Positions 3,703 to 47,176 of a stretch of 64,000 nt of DNA are shown in pieces. The translations under genes were made by a program, and so were the position numbers. Source of the DNA: Escherichia coli (GTDB lineage Bacteria > Pseudomonadota > Gammaproteobacteria > Enterobacterales > Enterobacteriaceae); the NCBI RefSeq assembly GCF_044324875.1, contig NZ_CP172185.1; one strand, written 5' to 3'. The notes beneath the pieces were generated by a model. It searched no databases and was not told where the DNA came from. It saw nothing but the letters and a program-made list of their open reading frames with translations. Every line of letters begins with the position of its first letter. Position 1 is the stretch's first letter.

Positions 3703-4467
3703 ATGAATAACTCCCCCCGCTACCCGCAGCGCGTTCGCAATGATCTGCGCTTCCGTGAATTGACTGTGCTACGCGTTGAGCGTATTAGCGTCGGTTTTCA
3801 GCGCATTGTCCTTGGCGGCGAGGCGCTGGACGGTTTTACATCGCGCGGCTTTGACGATCACAGCAAACTCTTCTTTCCTCAATCTGATGCTCACTTTGTG
3901 CCGCCAACGGTAACGGAAGAGGGCATCGTCTGGCCGGAAGGACCACGCCCACCGTCGCGTGACTATACGCCGCTGTATGACGAACTACGCCATGAACTGG
4001 CGATTGATTTCTTTATTCACGAAGGTGGCGTCGCCAGCAGCTGGGCAATGCAGGCGCAACCGGGCGATAAACTCACGGTGGCAGGTCCGCGCGGTTCGCT
4101 GGTGGTGCCAGAGGATTACGCGTATCAGCTGTATGTCTGCGATGAATCCGGAATGCCCGCACTGCGCCGCCGCCTGGAAACGTTGAGCAAACTTGCCGTT
4201 AAACCGCAAGTTAGCGCGCTGGTTAGCGTGCGGGATAACGCCTGTCAGGATTATCTCGCGCACCTTGATGGTTTTAATATCGAATGGCTGGCACATGATG
4301 AGCAGGCAGTAGATGCGCGTCTGGCGCAGATGCAAATCCCTGCCGATGATTACTTCATCTGGATAACCGGCGAAGGCAAAGTCGTTAAGAATTTAAGCCG
4401 CCGCTTTGAAGCGGAACAGTATGACCCACAGCGGGTACGTGCAGCGGCTTACTGGCACGCAAAGTAA
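3703..4467 (+). CDS. yqjH: Siderophore-interacting ferric reductase (FAD-binding, NAD(P)H-dependent)
   Basis: 254-aa ORF with SD GAAGG; siderophore-interacting protein family features; divergent from yqjI with Fur-like and palindromic sites between them. Confidence 0.9.
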   Translation: MNNSPRYPQRVRNDLRFRELTVLRVERISVGFQRIVLGGEALDGFTSRGFDDHSKLFFPQSDAHFVPPTVTEEGIVWPEGPRPPSRDYTPLYDELRHELAIDFFIHEGGVASSWAMQAQPGDKLTVAGPRGSLVVPEDYAYQLYVCDESGMPALRRRLETLSKLAVKPQVSALVSVRDNACQDYLAHLDGFNIEWLAHDEQAVDARLAQMQIPADDYFIWITGEGKVVKNLSRRFEAEQYDPQRVRAAAYWHAK

Positions 4468-29165: not shown

Positions 29166-29819
29166 ATGAATCAGACGCTACTTTCCTCTTTTGGTACGCC
29201 TTTCGAACGTGTTGAAAATGCACTGGCTGCGCTGCGTGAAGGACGCGGTGTAATGGTGCTTGATGATGAAGACCGTGAAAACGAAGGCGATATGATCTTC
29301 CCGGCAGAAACCATGACCGTTGAGCAGATGGCGCTGACCATTCGCCACGGTAGCGGTATTGTTTGCCTGTGCATTACTGAAGATCGCCGTAAACAACTCG
29401 ATCTGCCAATGATGGTAGAAAATAACACCAGCGCCTATGGCACCGGTTTTACCGTGACCATTGAAGCGGCTGAAGGTGTGACTACCGGTGTTTCTGCCGC
29501 TGACCGTATTACGACCGTTCGCGCAGCGATTGCCGATGGCGCAAAACCTTCTGATCTGAATCGCCCGGGCCACGTTTTCCCACTTCGCGCGCAGGCAGGT
29601 GGAGTACTGACGCGTGGCGGTCATACTGAAGCAACTATTGATCTAATGACGCTGGCAGGCTTTAAACCGGCTGGTGTGCTGTGTGAGCTGACTAATGACG
29701 ATGGCACGATGGCGCGTGCACCAGAGTGCATTGAGTTTGCCAATAAACACAATATGGCGCTCGTGACTATTGAAGATCTGGTGGCATACCGTCAGGCACA
29801 TGAGCGTAAAGCCAGCTGA
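29166..29819 (+). CDS. ribB: 3,4-dihydroxy-2-butanone 4-phosphate synthase
   Basis: 217-aa ORF with the [10 protein letters not shown] motif. Confidence 0.95.
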
Positions 29820-29851
29820 AAACCGCTGCTTAATTTACTGCCTTAATCAAG

Positions 29852-29888
29852 AAACCGAAGTTGTAGCAGGCTTCGGTTTTTATTTTTC
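29852..29888 (+). terminator. Rho-independent terminator of ribB
   Basis: AAACCGAAG / CTTCGGTTT stem followed by TTTTATTTTT. Confidence 0.75.
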
Positions 29889-30080
29889 CCTGCTATGCAA
29901 GATGTTAATTCCGCTTCTCTTTCTATGAGAAAATTTCATTAATATCAGGCATTCTTTTTCATTATGATCAAAATCATATAATTGTTCCGTTATTATGCGA
30001 CCATATGAATATATCCGAAAAAGGATATGTGAAATTTATGCGCTAAATGTTTAGTATTGTTAAATATTAAGGGTAAAAGG

Positions 30081-30251
30081 ATGTTTATCGCCTGGTACTG
30101 GATTGTATTGATTGCTCTGGTTGTGGTGGGTTATTTCCTGCATTTAAAACGTTATTGTCGGGCGTTTCGCCAGGATAGAGACGCACTGCTTGAAGCGCGG
30201 AACAAATACTTAAACAGTACGAGAGAAGAGACAGCCGAAAAGGTAGAATAA
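30081..30251 (+). CDS. Small single-TM protein, 56 aa (MFIAWYWIVLIALVVVGYFLHLKRYCRAFRQDRDALLEARNKYLNSTREETAEKVE)
   Basis: ORF with SD AAAAGG 5 nt upstream of the ATG, one hydrophobic helix and a charged tail. I have a vague recollection of a small annotated gene at this position in E. coli but cannot confirm it. Confidence 0.45.
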   Translation: MFIAWYWIVLIALVVVGYFLHLKRYCRAFRQDRDALLEARNKYLNSTREETAEKVE

Positions 30252-30268
30252 GACTTTAGTGAAGCTGA

Positions 30269-30299
30269 CAGAAGTTGTCCATGCGCTGGACAACTTCTG
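30269..30299. terminator. Hairpin between the small ORF and the 3' end of zupT
   Basis: 13-bp perfect stem CAGAAGTTGTCCA / TGGACAACTTCTG with TGCGC loop. Confidence 0.6.
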
Positions 30300-32013: not shown

Positions 32014-32021
32014 TAAAAGAA

Positions 32022-32048
32022 CCCGAAGCCAGAACGACTGGCTTCGGG
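32022..32048. terminator. Bidirectional terminator between ygiD and dsbI
   Basis: 11-bp perfect stem CCCGAAGCCAG / CTGGCTTCGGG with AACGA loop; A/T-rich flank on the dsbI side. Confidence 0.65.
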
Positions 32049-32058
32049 TGTTGCTGAG

Positions 32059-32730
32059 TTAGCCTCTGACGATTTTAAGCGCCCATGCGCCACTCATAAT
32101 GACCAGCAGCACCAGACACATACCAAAAGCCAGCATACAAGCCTGAGCCATATTCATAAAATGCCATGGTGGTAGCAGATACCAGCCTTCAGATTGCTGA
32201 TACATTTCCACAAACCACTGTTGCGTGCTGCTCAGTGTGACGCCATCAGGAACGATTGGGGCGTCATAGCCGCAATCCCCGGTAGGCTTGAACCAATTTG
32301 GTGCCCACTGTGCCAGTGGCAGGTTAAAGGGAAAAGTTGGATCGGTAGAGCAACCCTGTACGCCAAACAGTGAATCGGGATCCGGATTATGTACTGCATG
32401 GTGGATATCGTTCAGTTTGAGCGAAAACTTCAGTCCCAAAATGCTGCCGTAAAATGCCATCACGCAGCCAATTAGCTTTAGGATGATGTTCTTTGGGTTG
32501 ATCGCTGCAACCAATCCTCCAATAACCATCACAAACATGGCGTAGCGAATGTATACACATTGCTCACAGGGTGCCATGTAGAGATAGATCTGGAAGAAAG
32601 AGTGCGCCAGGATAATTAACGCGCCCATCGCAATGGCCATTAACAACCACAAAAAACGTTGTTCTTGCCATCTTACCAGCGTATCCACCGGTGAAGTGCG
32701 AAGGTCTTTCCACATTCCCTTAATACCCAT
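32059..32730 (-). CDS. dsbI: DsbB-family membrane disulfide oxidoreductase, DsbL partner
   Basis: 223-aa membrane ORF with the CEQC motif; immediately downstream of dsbL. Confidence 0.85.
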
Positions 32731-32744
32731 AGCCTGTTTCCCTG

Positions 32745-33413
32745 TTATTTGCTTGCTAACTCGCGGATAAGGTCTGCCATTGAGTCAATAGATTTAATAC
32801 TCTTGGTGTAGATCAGGTATTTACCATTGACGACATACGCCGGAACGCCCTGGATTTTTGCAACTTCATAAGAGGCTTTCCATTTTTCCAGTGTTTCTTG
32901 AACCGCTGGTTCTTTCAGTGCCGCTTCAAAATCCGCCTGACTCATACCTGCGGCATCCAGACCGGTTTTGATAAAAGCAGCCGGATCTTTACCATCAGAC
33001 CAGCGTTCTTTTTTGTCATGATAAGCCGCGTAATAAGCAAACTTGGCTTTCTTAAACTGAGAGTTAGCATCAAATAAGGAAATGCCTGCTGCTTTATCTT
33101 TATTGATCAAGACCGCAAAGACTTCGCTTGCTTGTTTGCCGTATTCACCTTTTGTTTCCAGATGGAATGGAGTAAAAGCAACGATATCTTTCACTTTTTC
33201 CGATACCGGACCGGTAACCGCTTTGTCGTACTTGTAACAGAACGGGCAGGCGTAGCTAAATACCTTAATCAGCGTTTTGTCGGCATTCGGAATAGGTTTT
33301 TCCAGAACCATGTAATCCGTGCCTTCGGTAAATGCAGAAGCGGTAAATGAAACAGCCAAAGCTGCGGTAAGCAGTATGGTTTTAAATAGTGATGAGATCC
33401 CTAATTTCGACAT
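32745..33413 (-). CDS. dsbL: Periplasmic thiol:disulfide oxidoreductase, DsbA paralogue
   Basis: 222-aa ORF with signal peptide and the thioredoxin-fold active site CPFC. Confidence 0.85.
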
Positions 33414-33430
33414 TTTTATTCCCTTCTTAA

Positions 33431-35227
33431 TTATTTGAACATCTGTTGTGGACGGACTAACAGTGCACGATAGTGAGTCTGATTGGGTTTATCTGACAGC
33501 ACGTCGATTTCCACTTTCACTTCTTTGGTTTTGTAATCGATTTCGTTCAACTTACCGACGGTTGGCTGCCCGACATCGAACAAATGAATAGAACCACCGA
33601 AGCCAAACATGGTGTTACGGTCGGCTTGATATTCAATGATGGAGGTAATCGGGCTATAGAAATCGTAGCCACGTTCTTTACCGTATTCCCACACTTGCTG
33701 AACGGTGCCTTTCTTCTCATCAATCTTATATTCCACAAAGCGGGAGTATTTCATGGTTGGTAAGGCAGGTTGTTCCAGATGACGCCCATCGCCATTATCA
33801 AAAATGGTGAGCGTTCCTTTGCTGGAAATCCAGGCGGTATGCTGGGTGTAGGTAAAGTCGAAGTCTGAGTTTTCGCACAGGCCATTTTCGTTACAGGTAA
33901 TTGGCTTCCCGTTAGCATCAACCGGTTTCAGCAGCTTGCTGGCCAGCGGTTTTTCCCAACCTTTAGAGGGCGCAAGGATCCATTTCACTTGCTTATCACG
34001 ACCAATTTTCACAACACCCTGGTGGCGAGAGGAGAGGATGATTGAGTCATCTTTTGCGTCATAGGCGATTGAGTTAACGTGCGCCCAGTTACGACCTGGC
34101 CCTACACCCAGCGCGTCGCCGAACGGTGTATCTGGTTCCAGTTTTGCCTGTTGTCCTGCATGGGCAAGGTCAACGTTAACGCAAACTGCACCTGCATCCA
34201 GCGCGCCGAGCAGTGCATCGCGTTTCGGATCGAGGATCTTGGTCAGATCCCATACATCGACAACGCGACCAGATTTATCGACTTCGAGGATATGGTCACG
34301 AATGGTGGTGACGTGTACGCCGTCATCGCGACGGTAATTGCTCTTACCTACGCGCAACAATACTGTGCCATTAGGCGTCTCAATGGACTCATGAGTGGCG
34401 TCAGCAAATCCGCGCGGTAGTTTGTGATCTTCGAGCACCTGCCCCATCATGTCGAACTCGTACCAGTGCTGACCTTGTACAGCGGTAAAGGTGCCGCGTG
34501 GTGTTTCGCGGATACCCATCAGATAACCACGCTTGTTGATATCGCGGTCACGACCATCGTAGAAGGTGTTTTGATCCAACCACCAGCGGTATTCGCCTTC
34601 GGTATCGACGATAAAGGTGAATGGCGCGATATCAAAAGGGAGTGCGCCAGTTGCCGGACCCGCATCAAGGATACCGGCATTTTTATCTTTCTCACCATGC
34701 CAGTGGAGATCGGAACCTTGGGCGGTAAAGGTGTGGGTATTAACCAGATAGAGGCGATCTTCAAAACCCGGTGCGACTTTAATAACTTTGGTCTGTTGTA
34801 AATCGGAGATAGAGCGGTTATCCATGTAATTATTGACGATGGCCGAAGTGTGCACCACATAATCATCTTTCATGACCTTGCCGTTTTCTTTCCACTCAAC
34901 GGTCACTTTGTTAGCAAATTTCTGATAAAGACCAAAAATCGGTACACCATCATAAGTTTTTAGTGATTCCTGACCCACGGGATAGCTGATTTCTACGCCT
35001 TTTTCGCCCTTCCCATGGACGGTAACTTTGACATCAGAAATGACATGGCTATCTAAGTCAACCAAAGCGGTCAGTGGTGCATTGCCGTAGGGATCGACAA
35101 TGACCGCACCCAGTTGCCCGGCAGGTGGTGCGGGTTTAAAACCTGCTGCCATCACCCCCGGTGCTGACAAACCCAGAGTTATCGCCACAGCTCCGGCTAC
35201 CAGAGTTTTTCTATATTTATCAAACAT
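33431..35227 (-). CDS. assT: Periplasmic arylsulfate sulfotransferase
   Basis: 598-aa ORF with signal peptide and beta-propeller-like arylsulfotransferase sequence; first gene of the assT-dsbL-dsbI block. Confidence 0.88.
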   Translation of the reverse strand: MFDKYRKTLVAGAVAITLGLSAPGVMAAGFKPAPPAGQLGAVIVDPYGNAPLTALVDLDSHVISDVKVTVHGKGEKGVEISYPVGQESLKTYDGVPIFGLYQKFANKVTVEWKENGKVMKDDYVVHTSAIVNNYMDNRSISDLQQTKVIKVAPGFEDRLYLVNTHTFTAQGSDLHWHGEKDKNAGILDAGPATGALPFDIAPFTFIVDTEGEYRWWLDQNTFYDGRDRDINKRGYLMGIRETPRGTFTAVQGQHWYEFDMMGQVLEDHKLPRGFADATHESIETPNGTVLLRVGKSNYRRDDGVHVTTIRDHILEVDKSGRVVDVWDLTKILDPKRDALLGALDAGAVCVNVDLAHAGQQAKLEPDTPFGDALGVGPGRNWAHVNSIAYDAKDDSIILSSRHQGVVKIGRDKQVKWILAPSKGWEKPLASKLLKPVDANGKPITCNENGLCENSDFDFTYTQHTAWISSKGTLTIFDNGDGRHLEQPALPTMKYSRFVEYKIDEKKGTVQQVWEYGKERGYDFYSPITSIIEYQADRNTMFGFGGSIHLFDVGQPTVGKLNEIDYKTKEVKVEIDVLSDKPNQTHYRALLVRPQQMFK

Positions 35228-35677
35228 GGATATATCTCCTTATATAACGCAAATATATAATAATGATGAATATCGACTGTTGAGGTGGTGCTAATAAATT
35301 TGTTTTGTGAATTAAAATGTATTAATAATAATCGTTATGAATATTTTTACTGGTTTTAGATTTTTTGTATTTCTCTGTAACAAATATTTTCTTTTGGTCG
35401 ATACTAGGTGGGCAATATATCAATAACAATATTCAATATTGTGTAGTGTGATCCCAGCGACATTGTTTTTTAATTATTAAATCTATTTTTGATGCGGTGT
35501 TTGATATAAATAAACTTATAAAACAATAGGTTACAAAGTGATTTTATTGATTAATTTAATTACAGTATCGCTTACATATGACGATTTAATATTAAATTAG
35601 GAATTAATGTTAAATAAAAGTGATGGATGTGATTGATTATATATAGATGGGGGTGATGATTTGCGAAGTATAATAAA

Positions 35678-35698
35678 TTGCCCCGGTAAACGGGGCAA
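35678..35698 (-). terminator. Rho-independent terminator after ygiC
   Basis: TTGCCCCG-GTAAA-CGGGGCAA hairpin with a U-rich tract on the minus strand. Confidence 0.6.
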
Positions 35699-35710
35699 TA
35701 TTGAACAGTA

Positions 35711-36871
35711 TTACTCAACAAAAATATGCGGATAAAACCGAGACATATCCTGGGTGATCAACGCACGGTCTTCACGAATGCCAATTCCGGCAGGTTGATC
35801 GTTCACCAGCCAGCTACCAATCAGCATATAGCTGTCGCCGAATTTCGGTAACGGGTGGAATTGCTGAACAATCATCCCTTCTTCGCCATACGGACCTTCC
35901 GCTGCTTCAATGGTTTTGCCGTTCTCAATGATCGACACGTTTGCGCCTTCACGGGAGAAGAGCGGTTTAACCACATATTTTTCCATTTGCGGATGATCAT
36001 CTTCCGCAAAATAAGCGGGCAGCAGGTTCGGGTGATTCGGGAACATCTCCCACAACAGCGGTAGAAGCGCTTTGTTGGAGATAATGCTCTTCCACGCCGG
36101 TTCCAGCCAGCGTACGCCTGCATCCTCCAGCTTGGTGGAGAACATCTCACGCAGCATAAATTCCCACGGATACAGCTTGAACAGGTTAGAAATCACCTGA
36201 TCTTGTAAATCCGTGAACTGACCTTTTTCGCCTAAACCGATATCGTCGATGTAGAGGAATTCAGTAGCGATTTCAGCTTCTGTCGCGCAGTCCTGCAAAT
36301 ACTGGATGGTTCCGCGATCTTCCACCGTGTCGCGACAGCAGGTGAGATGCAGCAACTGGAAGCCATACTGTTCACGCAACTCGACAAAGCGATCGATTAG
36401 CTTTTCTTGCAGACTGTTAAACTGGTCGCTGCCTTCCGGCAGGTTACCGGCGTTAAGCTGATCTTCCAGCCAGATCCACTGAAAGAATGCGGCTTCATAC
36501 AGTGACGTTGGCGTATCGGCGTTATTTTCCAGAAGTTTAGGTTCGCCAGTACCATCCCACGCCAGATCAAGACGCGAATAAAGCGATGGCTGGTGAGTCA
36601 GCCATGACTGGCGCACAAAACTCCAGGTGTGTTTTGGAATGCGGAATTTGGTCATCAGCTCATCGCTGGCGATCACTTTTTCAACCACTTTCAGGCACAT
36701 CTGGTGCAGTTCGGCGGTGACTTCTTCCAGCTTTTCAACCTGGGCGAGGGTCAACTTGTAGTAAGCATCTTCACACCAGTACGGTTCGCCGTACATGGTG
36801 TGAAAATTGAAACCGTATTCGTGGGCTTTTTCGCGCCAGTCCGGGCGCTCGGTAATACTGACTCTTTCCAT
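35711..36871 (-). CDS. ygiC: ATP-grasp enzyme related to glutathionylspermidine synthetase
   Basis: 386-aa ORF with GspS-like synthetase-domain similarity; last gene of the tolC-ygiB-ygiC string. Confidence 0.9.
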
Positions 36872-43851: not shown

Positions 43852-45993
43852 TCAAAATTCCATTTTCACCGTGAATTGCACTTCACGCGGATCGCCAATC
43901 TGATTCCCCAGATTATTTGTGGCGATGGAAGAGGTGTAATACGTTTTATCAAACAGTTTTTTGACGTTTAATTGCAGTGTGACCGGATACTGCAATTTCA
44001 TTTTGTATGCGGCGAAGGCATCGGCAACGAAATAGCCTGGCAGATAATAGTCAGCCCCATTGGTTGCCGAACGACGGCTTACGCCATGTCCACCACCGCC
44101 AAACGTCAGTGTGTTATTGCCTGGCATGTTATGAATGTCATAGGTCAGGAATAGCGAACCGGTATGACGAGGAACATTCGGCAATGGTTTCCCTGCATAA
44201 TCAGGATCTTCCAGAACCTTAGCATCGGTATAGCCGTAGCTGGCAATGATATTAATGTTTTCAGTTAATGCTCCCGCAAGGTCGACTTCTACCCCTCTTG
44301 AACGAACGCGGCCTGCCGTTTTGGCGATGGTTTCATCACCAATACTTTCGGTATACAACACGTTACGTTTATGGATATCAAACAGCGCAATATCTGCGGT
44401 TATACCATCGAACAGCTCGAATTTTGCCCCGACTTCGTAAGCATTAGATGATTCCGGTGGAAGATCTCCGATGTAGCTGGCAATTGACGATTGCGGCATA
44501 AATGTTTGCGAATAATTAGCAAATAAGGATACCGATGGCGTCAGTTTGTAGACTAACCCCAGTTTGGGCGTCCATTGTTCATCGCGGCTGTCAGTATTGA
44601 CATTAAAAGGACGGCCTTTACCCGCATACTGCGTGTAATACTGATAGCGGATCCCGGCGACGGCAATCCAGTTATCGGTCAGATAGAGCGCGTCCTGTGC
44701 ATACGCTGAGTAGCTCTCCTGTTTGATCGTCTGATCGCTGTCCGACGCCGAGACAGTTGTGCATTTGCTGGTATTGCCGTAAACAGGGTTGTAGATATTG
44801 AAATCTTTAGCGTTTTTACAGCGAATCATATCTGTGCGCAGAAGATCATAATATTCATATGACACCCCACCCAGAATCTCATTATAGAACCCAGCAATAT
44901 CAACATTCCCTTGCAGATCCGCACGAGTAGCATGCATACGCTGGGTAGATCCCTGAGTTGCATCAACACGCCGTGTCAGCGTTCCTGTCGTTGCATCATA
45001 CGCGGTAACACGAGCCTGATTATCGCCGTATTTATCCTGGCTGTAGCTGTAATCAAAGCGCGCTGTCCACTGGCTATTGAGATGATATTCTGCGTTGAGT
45101 TGCGCCAGATCGGACTGACCATCTGTAATATTAAACGGTTCGTCAAAACGTATTTTTCGATCAACGTTTACGGGCTGTTTCGTCGTAAGGTCGAAAATCG
45201 TTCCACGATCGAACGGAGTTTTATAATCCCGATGGGAATAGAGCATGGTTACTGTTGCATTATCACCAAACCAGGTGAGTGATGGGGCAATAAATGTACT
45301 GCGCTCTTTACCAAAGTTTCGCCAGTAATCTTCATCCTGCACTTCCCCGGTAAGGCGATACGCCAGTTGAGTGCCTTCAATGGGGCCAGTGATATCAAGT
45401 TGCCCGGTGCCACCACCGAAACTGGAGGACGTGGCTGAGACAGAACCATGGAATGTTTTTTCCGGGCGTTTGGTCACGACGTTAATCAATCCACCAGGAT
45501 CGAGAATGCCATACAGCGTGGAGGCCGGGCCTTTTAGCACTTCCACACGTTCTGTGGCGGCGTTGAAACTGCGAGGAAGTACAGTTCGCAGGCCGTTGGT
45601 CATGATGGAGCCATCCCGGTTAGCACCAAACCCACGACGTACAAAGGCGTCCTGAGTTCCGCCTAATGTATTGGTCTGTACCACGTTACTGACGTTATAA
45701 AGCGCTTCATCCAGCGTCGTTGCATTCTGATTTTCCAGAACCTGATCGCTAACCGTATTGACCACCTGCGGGATATCCAGCATCGGCATATCGGTTAATG
45801 TCGCCGTGGAGGTGCTCAGAGGTTGATAACCATCGGTTGCTTCAGTTGCGGTATTTGCATCTGCTGTAACAGTGATTGTTTCGCCATCTTTGGTCGTTAC
45901 AGAGTCTGTTGCATGAATCATCGGTGCCGCAAAAAGCAGTGAAAAGAGCGCCCGACCTTTGAGTCCTGAGAATGAAGGTGTGAACATAGCCAT
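43852..45993 (-). CDS. TonB-dependent outer-membrane receptor (siderophore-type)
   Basis: 713-aa ORF with signal peptide, plug region and a beta-barrel ending in the aromatic C-terminal residue (...FTVKMEF). Confidence 0.85.
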   Translation of the reverse strand: MAMFTPSFSGLKGRALFSLLFAAPMIHATDSVTTKDGETITVTADANTATEATDGYQPLSTSTATLTDMPMLDIPQVVNTVSDQVLENQNATTLDEALYNVSNVVQTNTLGGTQDAFVRRGFGANRDGSIMTNGLRTVLPRSFNAATERVEVLKGPASTLYGILDPGGLINVVTKRPEKTFHGSVSATSSSFGGGTGQLDITGPIEGTQLAYRLTGEVQDEDYWRNFGKERSTFIAPSLTWFGDNATVTMLYSHRDYKTPFDRGTIFDLTTKQPVNVDRKIRFDEPFNITDGQSDLAQLNAEYHLNSQWTARFDYSYSQDKYGDNQARVTAYDATTGTLTRRVDATQGSTQRMHATRADLQGNVDIAGFYNEILGGVSYEYYDLLRTDMIRCKNAKDFNIYNPVYGNTSKCTTVSASDSDQTIKQESYSAYAQDALYLTDNWIAVAGIRYQYYTQYAGKGRPFNVNTDSRDEQWTPKLGLVYKLTPSVSLFANYSQTFMPQSSIASYIGDLPPESSNAYEVGAKFELFDGITADIALFDIHKRNVLYTESIGDETIAKTAGRVRSRGVEVDLAGALTENINIIASYGYTDAKVLEDPDYAGKPLPNVPRHTGSLFLTYDIHNMPGNNTLTFGGGGHGVSRRSATNGADYYLPGYFVADAFAAYKMKLQYPVTLQLNVKKLFDKTYYTSSIATNNLGNQIGDPREVQFTVKMEF

Positions 45994-46366
45994 TTAGTCT
46001 GTTATCCCAAAAACTCGCGGATTGTCGCGAGTGAAAATTGTTTCTTATTGCTCACTAAGCACTATCCGTTTGTTATTTCGCCATCGGATATGTAATTGAG
46101 AATCATTCAATCATGCGGTAATGTAGTAGTAAATGAGAAATAACAAAAAATTGCTACATGTGTTTTTATGAGAGGTTAATGCAATTCAATTGATGGTAAT
46201 TTATTAATATTTAATGATTTTATTTTTATCTTTAAAAAAATTTCACCTGTTATTTACCTTGTTTTTGTATGGCTTTTAACTTCTTGACTACTACATTTTG
46301 TGGCGTCAAACTCTCAAAGGAGAATGAGTTTTATTTTTGTTTGTCTTTGATTAAGTTGGCGTACAC

Positions 46367-47176
46367 GTGGCACATAACGCAAAAGGGCAGGGGCTGATCC
46401 TCGACAATGTTTCTGCCGGGTATCACAAGAAAATCATTGTTGATGGTGTTTCTTTCTCCGTTCCCACAGAAAAAATGACCGTTCTGGTTGGGGCAAACGG
46501 CTGTGGAAAGTCGACGTTGCTCAGCACCATTGCACGTATCTTGCAACCTATGGGCGGCTCGATATTGCTGGATGGTAAAGCGATTCACGAGCAACCAACG
46601 AAAGCGTTATCCCGTAGACTTGGGATCTTGCCGCAGTCGCCATTATTGCCGGAGGGCTTAACCGTTTATGAACTGGTGTCGCGTGGGCGTTTTCCCTGGC
46701 AGAATTTCATTCGTCAATGGAGCGACGCCGACGAGCAGGCGGTAGAAGAGGCCCTGAAATTAACCGGTACGCAGGAGTTTGCACATTTACCTGTTGAAAA
46801 ACTTTCTGGTGGGCAGCGCCAGCGTTGCTGGATTGCGATGGTGTTGGCGCAAAAGACGCCTTATATCCTACTGGATGAACCCACAACCTGGCTTGATTTA
46901 CGTTATCAGGTTGAAATTCTTGAGTTATTACATGATTTAACGCGTCATCACGGGCGTACAGTCGTCGTGGTGTTGCATGATCTGAATTTTGCCGTCAATT
47001 ATGGTGATACGTTGATATTTTTACGCCAGGGGAAAGTGGTGCGTGTGTTGAATGAGGGGGAGCATTGCACGCCTGAGCTGGTAAAAGCTGTCTTTGACGT
47101 TGATGTTCACGCATCAATAAATCCTCTGACGGGAAAGCCGTTCTTCATGCCGTTTCGTGGTGTAGAAAAAGTATGA
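46367..47176 (+). CDS. ABC transporter ATP-binding protein (iron-siderophore / FepC-FecE type)
   Basis: 269-aa ORF with Walker A GANGCGKST, signature LSGGQRQR and Walker B ILLDEPT; the start codon is GTG in the track and is uncertain. Confidence 0.85.
   Translation: MAHNAKGQGLILDNVSAGYHKKIIVDGVSFSVPTEKMTVLVGANGCGKSTLLSTIARILQPMGGSILLDGKAIHEQPTKALSRRLGILPQSPLLPEGLTVYELVSRGRFPWQNFIRQWSDADEQAVEEALKLTGTQEFAHLPVEKLSGGQRQRCWIAMVLAQKTPYILLDEPTTWLDLRYQVEILELLHDLTRHHGRTVVVVLHDLNFAVNYGDTLIFLRQGKVVRVLNEGEHCTPELVKAVFDVDVHASINPLTGKPFFMPFRGVEKV

Follow-up and report, generated by a model that had tools for sequence, protein, structure and literature searches.

An AT-rich, dimorphic and putatively regulatory region with a conserved promoter-like core upstream of the aryl-sulfate sulfotransferase gene of Escherichia coli

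The 483 bp separating the aryl-sulfate sulfotransferase gene assT from ygiC (positions 35228-35710 of the 64-kb stretch of E. coli DNA analyzed here, termed "the window") form the lowest-GC block of that window and enclose a 74-bp core that is conserved at fixed spacing across five genera, while much of the remainder occurs in E. coli as two discrete alleles. We consider it probable that this gap is a cis-regulatory region that travels with an accessory islet and that would be silenced by H-NS, relieved by LeuO or by particular growth conditions, and assisted by cAMP-CRP. As an AT-rich control region it is largely ordinary; the conserved core and the two alleles are the features worth noting.

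A preliminary description of this DNA had called the ~480 bp upstream of assT far more AT-rich than its surroundings, allowing that a GC content within about 5 points of the window average would speak against this. Sliding-window analysis puts the gap 25 points below that average (26.5%, or 0.265, vs 51.5%, or 0.515). Among 483-bp windows (GC standard deviation, 0.047), 0.13% are equally low and every one of them overlaps 35228-35710; the lowest 200-bp GC in the 64 kb (0.22) also falls here, at 35462-35661. The borders are exact, with the assT ATG at 35227 and the ygiC stop ending at 35711, both on the minus strand, and the hairpin of the ygiC terminator occupies 35699-35677. The surrounding gene order is ygiD (plus strand), then dsbI, dsbL and the aryl-sulfate sulfotransferase gene (minus), followed by ygiC, ygiB and tolC (minus), with names taken from the RefSeq annotation of near-identical loci (E. 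coli C4 and ATCC 25922) and from Pfam, which confirmed Arylsulfotrans, DSBA, DsbB and GSP_synth domains in the four proteins tested.

As previously noted, no ORF of at least 60 codons lies inside 35228-35710, and no small ORF or uORF within it is conserved between the two E. coli alleles. A 64-codon ATG ORF that extends across the left edge of the gap (35100-35294, plus strand) runs antisense to the assT start and is probably spurious. Rfam covariance models gave a single match in the gap, to the rimP leader, whose 23.9 bits fall short of the gathering score of 47 (E=0.25). Two structural impressions in the preliminary description did not withstand comparison with base composition. The "long A/T runs" amount to 12 runs of at least 4 nt against 10.5-11.2 expected (P=0.34-0.46), the longest homopolymer being 6 nt, and the "curved-DNA-like phasing" corresponds to an AA/TT periodicity peak at 10.4 bp (range 10-11.2 bp) with P=0.19 overall and, in the best 120-bp sub-window, P=0.047 uncorrected for 10 tests. 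As both counts and periodicity are within the expectation from composition, we discarded curvature and A-tract phasing as a structural argument. TpA steps in the gap are likewise at the level expected from composition (ratio 1.03), compared with a depletion in the window as a whole (0.75).

Homology to K-12 MG1655 breaks exactly at the ygiD stop (32013) and at the ygiC stop (35711), and the window thus carries a 3.7-kb islet (32014..35710) where K-12 has a 37-bp spacer between ygiC and ygiD. The islet consists of a hairpin at its left border, dsbI, dsbL, assT and the AT-rich gap with its ygiC terminator. The K-12 spacer has its own hairpin, and the terminator that comes with the islet differs from it. 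Recovered in a terminator scan (35677..35699, minus strand; ATTGCCCCG-TTTAC-CGGGGCAAT then TTTATTAT), the islet terminator has a GC-rich 9-bp stem directly after the ygiC stop, followed by the T-rich tract. Of these 9 base pairs, 4 have changed on both sides among six Escherichia sequences and are still paired, and such compensatory changes indicate that the hairpin is a real terminator. At the other border, a hairpin at 32021-32049 (within 32014-32058) with perfect 12-bp arms, ACCCGAAGCCAG and CTGGCTTCGGGT, and a 5-nt loop sits between the convergent genes ygiD and dsbI, where 1 of 45 positions differs from ATCC 25922. This hairpin probably terminates transcription in both directions.

Of 5426 complete E. 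coli genomes, 1508 carry the gap, in each case as one chromosomal copy, and assT was found in an equal number (1508), leaving K-12 and 72% of complete genomes without the islet. Two matches in PLSDB (NZ_CP141089.1 and NZ_CP134663.1), which would have been plasmid copies, are evidently 4.9-Mb chromosomes filed as plasmids; a search for flanking repeats at the islet found none and, with mobile-element copies likewise missing, a mobile-element origin was set aside. The ygiC/ygiD site also houses the islet in E. albertii, E. whittamii, a cryptic-clade Escherichia and Pseudocitrobacter, and its presence at one site in these Escherichia lineages implies that it is old in the genus rather than recent. 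The earlier characterization of the region as "horizontally acquired" therefore holds insofar as the islet is accessory, but not if recent arrival is meant. In Citrobacter, Salmonella and Intestinirhabdus, ygiC and ygiD adjoin each other and the assT cluster lies further on: in the C. youngae and S. arizonae loci it follows zupT and yqiD, divergent from yqiD, with ribB after dsbI in S. arizonae.

Within the gap, the core (35472-35399; 74 bp) shares 68% identity with 11 non-Escherichia sequences over an alignment with 1 gap column, compared with 16-40% identity and many indels in its flanks, and it was found in 17 loci from Escherichia, Pseudocitrobacter, Citrobacter, Salmonella and Intestinirhabdus. 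Its elements follow in the order AAACAATGTCG-CTGG-GATCACA, CAATA-N5-TATTG, TTGTTA, a 17-nt spacer and TAGTAT. The last of these make up a sigma-70 promoter-like element (35401..35429, minus strand), with a -35 hexamer TTGTTA at 35429-35424, a 17-bp spacer and a -10 hexamer TAGTAT at 35406-35401. Using an approximate weight matrix, this element scored 10.7, second-best among sigma-70 candidates on the minus strand; the best-scoring candidate overlaps the ygiC terminator, and genera that lack this terminator lack the candidate too. The -35 hexamer is weak, matching at 4/6 positions. The palindrome CAATA-N5-TATTG (35427..35441, minus strand), an inverted pair that overlaps the -35 hexamer, is operator-like, and further upstream there is a CRP-like site, TGTCGCTGGGATCACA (35447..35462, minus strand), which agrees with the consensus at 8/10 positions and has one perfect half-site and a GATC inside; the string GATCACA is invariant in the core alignment. 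In all 17 Enterobacteriaceae loci the distance from the -10 hexamer, TA(C/G)TAT, to TCACA is exactly 40 nt, without indels. If transcription starts 7 nt past the -10 hexamer, at the A at ~35394, the CRP-like dyad is centered at -60.5/-61.5, again with identical spacing in 17/17 loci.

This conserved, indel-free geometry makes a promoter with an upstream site for a dimeric activator the best reading of the core, and on the strength of the alignments we regard it as likely that the core is a promoter. Judged by these comparisons, the core is under purifying selection while the rest of the gap diverges freely. The preliminary suggestion that the region may hold the control region of the sulfotransferase operon thus gains support from a promoter-like core and a ribosome-binding block that are conserved across five genera amid otherwise diverging sequence. 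A palindromic octamer, CAATATTG, occurs in the core over the -35 hexamer and, 254 bp farther upstream, at the base of the ygiC terminator (35696-35705); the two copies may be due to chance in AT-rich DNA or may be a site pair for a looping regulator. By-eye comparison with the consensus sites of FNR, TyrR, IHF, ArcA, OmpR and SlyA gave none that convincingly fits a conserved block.

Class I CRP promoters have their site centered near -61.5, -72.5 or -92.5, as in lacP1 at -61.5. The assT core may resemble them, with a CRP-like dyad of the form TGTGA-N6-TCACA centered ~60.5-61.5 bp upstream of the inferred start and a weak -35 (4/6), as expected of an activator-dependent promoter; it differs from them in its left half-site, TGTCG, and in being embedded in ~450 bp of 25%-GC DNA. 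Matches to the CRP consensus with at most 2 mismatches occur in the window at the rate of chance (22 vs 25 expected), so that the case for CRP is one of conservation and position. That CRP is the factor at the conserved dyad is accordingly a possibility to which we assign somewhat less than an even chance. A slightly less favored reading is that AATGTCG-N4-GATCACA binds another regulator, such as a dedicated sensor of phenolic or sulfated substrates, or is a Dam-sensitive site: one half-site is poor, consensus matches occur at the chance rate, the GATC within the dyad is invariant, and a flanking AAACAA that the CRP consensus does not require is also conserved. However, the perfect TCACA half-site, the 6-bp spacer and the position of the center together reproduce class I CRP geometry, and the islet is without a regulator gene.

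Downstream of the inferred start, an AT-rich leader of 167 nt (35228..35394, minus strand) is hypervariable at 35301-35398 and conserved over its last ~70 nt, which include a strong ribosome-binding site, AAGGAG (35241-35236, minus strand). The ribosome-binding block TTATATAAGGAGATATATCC-ATG is 90% identical across genera, and the leader RNA shows no significant structure (z=+0.92). Such a long leader, with its last ~70 nt conserved in Escherichia, Citrobacter and Salmonella, suggests that a proximal promoter may exist, and the core could then be either an upstream regulatory module or a second, condition-specific (e.g., LeuO-dependent) promoter, with the working assT promoter located within 35228-35300. 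That interval is 96-100% identical across the Escherichia alleles compared and is partly conserved in Citrobacter and Salmonella, and work on S. Typhi is reported to have found several assT start sites. Nonetheless, we judge a proximal working promoter to be rather unlikely: the best proximal sigma-70 candidate scores 5.5 vs 10.7 for the distal one, Pseudocitrobacter keeps the distal core without the proximal block except for the ribosome-binding site, and the fixed geometry of the -10 and -35 hexamers relative to the dyad is what a promoter at the core predicts. The distance from the core to the ATG is itself variable, measuring 364-380 bp in C. amalonaticus and Intestinirhabdus vs 197-238 bp elsewhere. 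Both have large insertions in the leader, that of C. amalonaticus (~140 bp) containing a GC-rich, REP-like hairpin (GCTGGCCCCGAAGGGG...GGCCAGG).

AT-rich DNA precedes assT in all 23 of the Enterobacterales loci that we fetched, with a GC content of 23-43% over 500 bp compared with 45-60% for the respective loci. In Salmonella, binding of H-NS tracks AT content far better than curvature (PMC1550270), and in S. Typhi H-NS represses the assT-dsbL-dsbI operon and LeuO activates it, both in a growth-condition-dependent way (PMC4264507, citing Gallego-Hernandez 2012). The chromosomal assT/astA of uropathogenic E. coli CFT073 is not expressed under standard culture conditions, and chromosomal assT of uropathogenic strains has been reported to be upregulated in the urine of infected mice (PMC7810732). 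Of the traits associated with H-NS targets, the E. coli gap displays an AT content well above average and residence in accessory DNA; it gives no signal of curvature, a non-essential correlate. Matches to the H-NS 10-mer TCGATAAATT with at most 2 mismatches number 75 in the window vs 63 expected, which does not discriminate, and the searchable literature, including the supplementary tables of hns transcriptome and ChIP papers, yielded no H-NS, LeuO or CRP data for the E. coli assT locus. By analogy, H-NS silencing of the E. coli gap is plausible, with the actions of both H-NS and LeuO extrapolated here from the S. Typhi orthologue.

Under the arrangement that we propose, H-NS would polymerize over the ~450 bp of 25%-GC DNA that flank the core promoter, and would keep the assT operon silent during ordinary growth in culture. 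Silencing would be lifted by LeuO, by particular conditions (minimal medium, urine or high cAMP, for example) or by both, and cAMP-CRP would help to recruit RNA polymerase at the core promoter. Expression of S. Typhi assT has reportedly been seen in minimal medium, which would fit a promoter assisted by cAMP-CRP. It is also conceivable, if improbable, that the AT-richness is passive, a product of relaxed constraint and AT-biased mutation with no specific role for H-NS, and that assT is silent for want of an activator. Outside the core, the gap is indeed mostly very fast-evolving and rich in indels, and neither a curvature signal nor H-NS motifs in excess of what composition predicts were seen. 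However, low GC has been kept in 23/23 loci, including those of hosts with 57-60% GC, the orthologous S. Typhi region is repressed by H-NS (PMC4264507), and AT content is the main determinant of H-NS binding (PMC1550270). Silencing by H-NS remains the reading that we prefer.

E. coli carries the gap in two forms. The 1508 genomes returned by a megablast of the gap fell into 261 with at least 95% identity and 1247 with 78-79%, none lying between, and a query specific to allele 1 recovered exactly the same 261. The dimorphic segment comprises 35301..35676, over which allele 1 (the window type; n=261 genomes) and allele 2 (the B2 type; n=1247) are 70-72% identical when the window, C4 and MS1050 are compared with ATCC 25922, R6, 2014C-3075 and CU42ET-1, and at least 97% identical within either allele. 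The alleles diverge immediately past the ygiC stop codon and become similar again near 35300. Between the window and allele-2 strains, ygiC, the whole of assT, dsbL and dsbI are 96-99% identical (93-95% for the 5' half of assT in R6 and 2014C-3075), and the neighboring intergenic regions show 0-2 differences each from ATCC 25922. The core promoter, the dyad and the ribosome-binding site are common to both alleles, whose differences lie mainly in the leader and the far-upstream DNA.

The Jukes-Cantor (JC) distance between the gaps of the window and ATCC 25922 is 0.315, in addition to 15 gap columns, vs a dS of 0.05-0.14 in the flanking genes; between the window and E. whittamii the gap distance is 0.159 vs an assT dS of 0.29-0.37. 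Allele 1 is thus closer to E. whittamii than to E. coli B2 in the gap, and the flanking genes say the opposite; over 35340-35499, the window is 95-97% identical to E. whittamii and 64-88% identical to ATCC 25922. Because these gap and flank distances fit no single substitution rate, the sequences point to allelic exchange or to an old polymorphism. That the 71% identity between alleles arose in place, by accelerated divergence of unconstrained AT-rich DNA between phylogroups, is very improbable: the alleles do appear lineage-associated, with all placeable allele-2 strains (ATCC 25922, ST131) in phylogroup B2, and the flanking dS is itself fairly high, but the rate ratios from ATCC 25922 and E. 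whittamii are incongruent, 35340-35499 lies nearer to E. whittamii, neighboring intergenic regions differ at 0-2 sites only, and the onset of the divergence at the ygiC stop codon is abrupt.

We offer only tentatively the view that the two alleles are regulatory haplotypes of long standing, exchanged between Escherichia species or maintained in them, and that, since they differ mainly where H-NS and LeuO are most likely to bind, they would set different silencing thresholds or induction conditions; if so, they would amount to a regulatory rewiring of assT between B2 ExPEC and other lineages. The neighboring coding sequence has a history of its own: in ~549 genomes, including that of R6, identity to the window is only 90-95% over the 5' 928 bp of assT, and in R6 the first 450 nt of the gene (R6 3979-4428, equivalent to window 34778-35227) are 88% identical, with a dS of 0.585, next to a gap of allele 2. 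This divergence of the R6 assT 5' end despite its allele-2 gap indicates that recombination has made the locus a mosaic, with a breakpoint close to the start of assT.

Horizontal regulatory switching was reportedly described by Oren et al. in 2014, and switched intergenic regions have been described with Piggy (PMC5890482). The assT gap shares with such regions its discrete alleles (two, at 71% identity, with no intermediates among 1508 genomes), its conserved flanks (96-99%) and relationships that disagree with those of the flanks. It differs from them in that the core promoter is retained in both alleles, and the replacement was therefore partial, affecting the leader and the far-upstream DNA without swapping the promoter.

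The closest known system is the assT regulatory region of S. Typhi. Its operon is orthologous (E. coli AssT is 86% identical to the S. arizonae protein), and in Salmonella, too, the AT-rich upstream DNA contains the 74-bp core, with equally spaced dyad, -35 and -10, and the ribosome-binding block. The two differ in location, since the Salmonella and Citrobacter clusters lie between yqiD and ribB, divergent from yqiD, and that of E. coli lies between ygiC and ygiD after a terminator; in sequence, identity outside the core being only ~16-40%; and in that control by H-NS and LeuO is known for the S. Typhi version and predicted for that of E. coli. Among quiescent loci that are silenced by H-NS and antagonized by LeuO (ompS1, bgl, the CRISPR-cas operon), the assT gap would be at home as accessory, AT-rich DNA upstream of a gene silent in standard culture (PMC7810732) whose orthologue responds to LeuO (PMC4264507). 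The gap is unlike those loci in being without an intrinsic curvature signal, and its H-NS and LeuO sites are candidates only. Nothing is overturned by these comparisons, which would extend the H-NS/LeuO paradigm of Salmonella to E. coli by analogy.

AssT, a periplasmic enzyme encoded by an accessory gene in gut and urinary E. coli, transfers sulfate between phenolic compounds and re-sulfates host phenolic metabolites. With a likely promoter and likely control sites in hand, the question of how assT is silenced and induced becomes experimentally simple, and the two discrete alleles provide a natural experiment on the re-tuning of silenced accessory genes between lineages.

The far-upstream AT-rich DNA (35473..35676, minus strand; ~200 bp) contains repeated dyads. 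The dyads of one block, termed here block A (35618-35584, minus strand; TTTATTTAACATTAAT..ATTTAAT|ATTAAAT), show 0 gap columns and 52% identity to non-Escherichia sequences, compared with 16-32% for neighboring blocks, and in Citrobacter and Salmonella the dyad reads TTTAAC|GTTAAA. A related, inverted copy, ATTTAATAATTAA, is found at 35487-35470 (minus strand). The block A dyads and this copy may be sites of H-NS nucleation or of LeuO binding. Block A is ~30 nt away from the start of the divergent yqiD in Citrobacter and Salmonella; E. coli has its own yqiD at 30081-30251, and upstream of it a similar block, whose pairwise similarity to block A is weak (z=0 to 2.7). At two Pseudocitrobacter loci, a yqiD-like small membrane ORF (MYIAWHWMALIAVLAGY...) lies divergent from assT inside the ygiC/ygiD islet; it is 45% identical to E. 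coli YqiD (E=4e-9), and there is no Escherichia copy at that place. One scenario, which we think possible without favoring it, is that the Escherichia islet began as a divergent yqiD-assT unit and subsequently lost its copy of yqiD, and the distal part of the gap may be a relic of the divergent yqiD promoter region. A tblastn search for a yqiD pseudogene in the gap found none, its single match being the antisense strand of the 3' end of ygiC.

Upstream of yqiD, a palindrome at 29963-29978, TATGATCAAAATCATA, resembles an FNR or CRP site. Citrobacter and Salmonella conserve its element TATGATTTCGATCATA between yqiD and assT, and the assT gap of E. albertii has a related one, CTATGATTTATCATAG. 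Beyond yqiD, the window (29227-30290) and ATCC 25922 contain unrelated DNA (24-58% "identity"), with a fimbrial-like gene in ATCC 25922 where the window has ribB-proximal DNA, which constitutes a second variable site. This site adjoins an AT-rich block (29879-30078; 27.5% GC) that corresponds to the position of the assT cluster in those Salmonella and Citrobacter loci that were analyzed. Second only to the assT gap in AT content within the window, the block at 45815-46357 (34% GC over 483 bp; 23.5% over 46088-46287) overlaps the 5' end of an ORF on the minus strand (43852-45993) and the gap before a divergent ORF on the plus strand (46367-47176), and may be another control region of the H-NS type.
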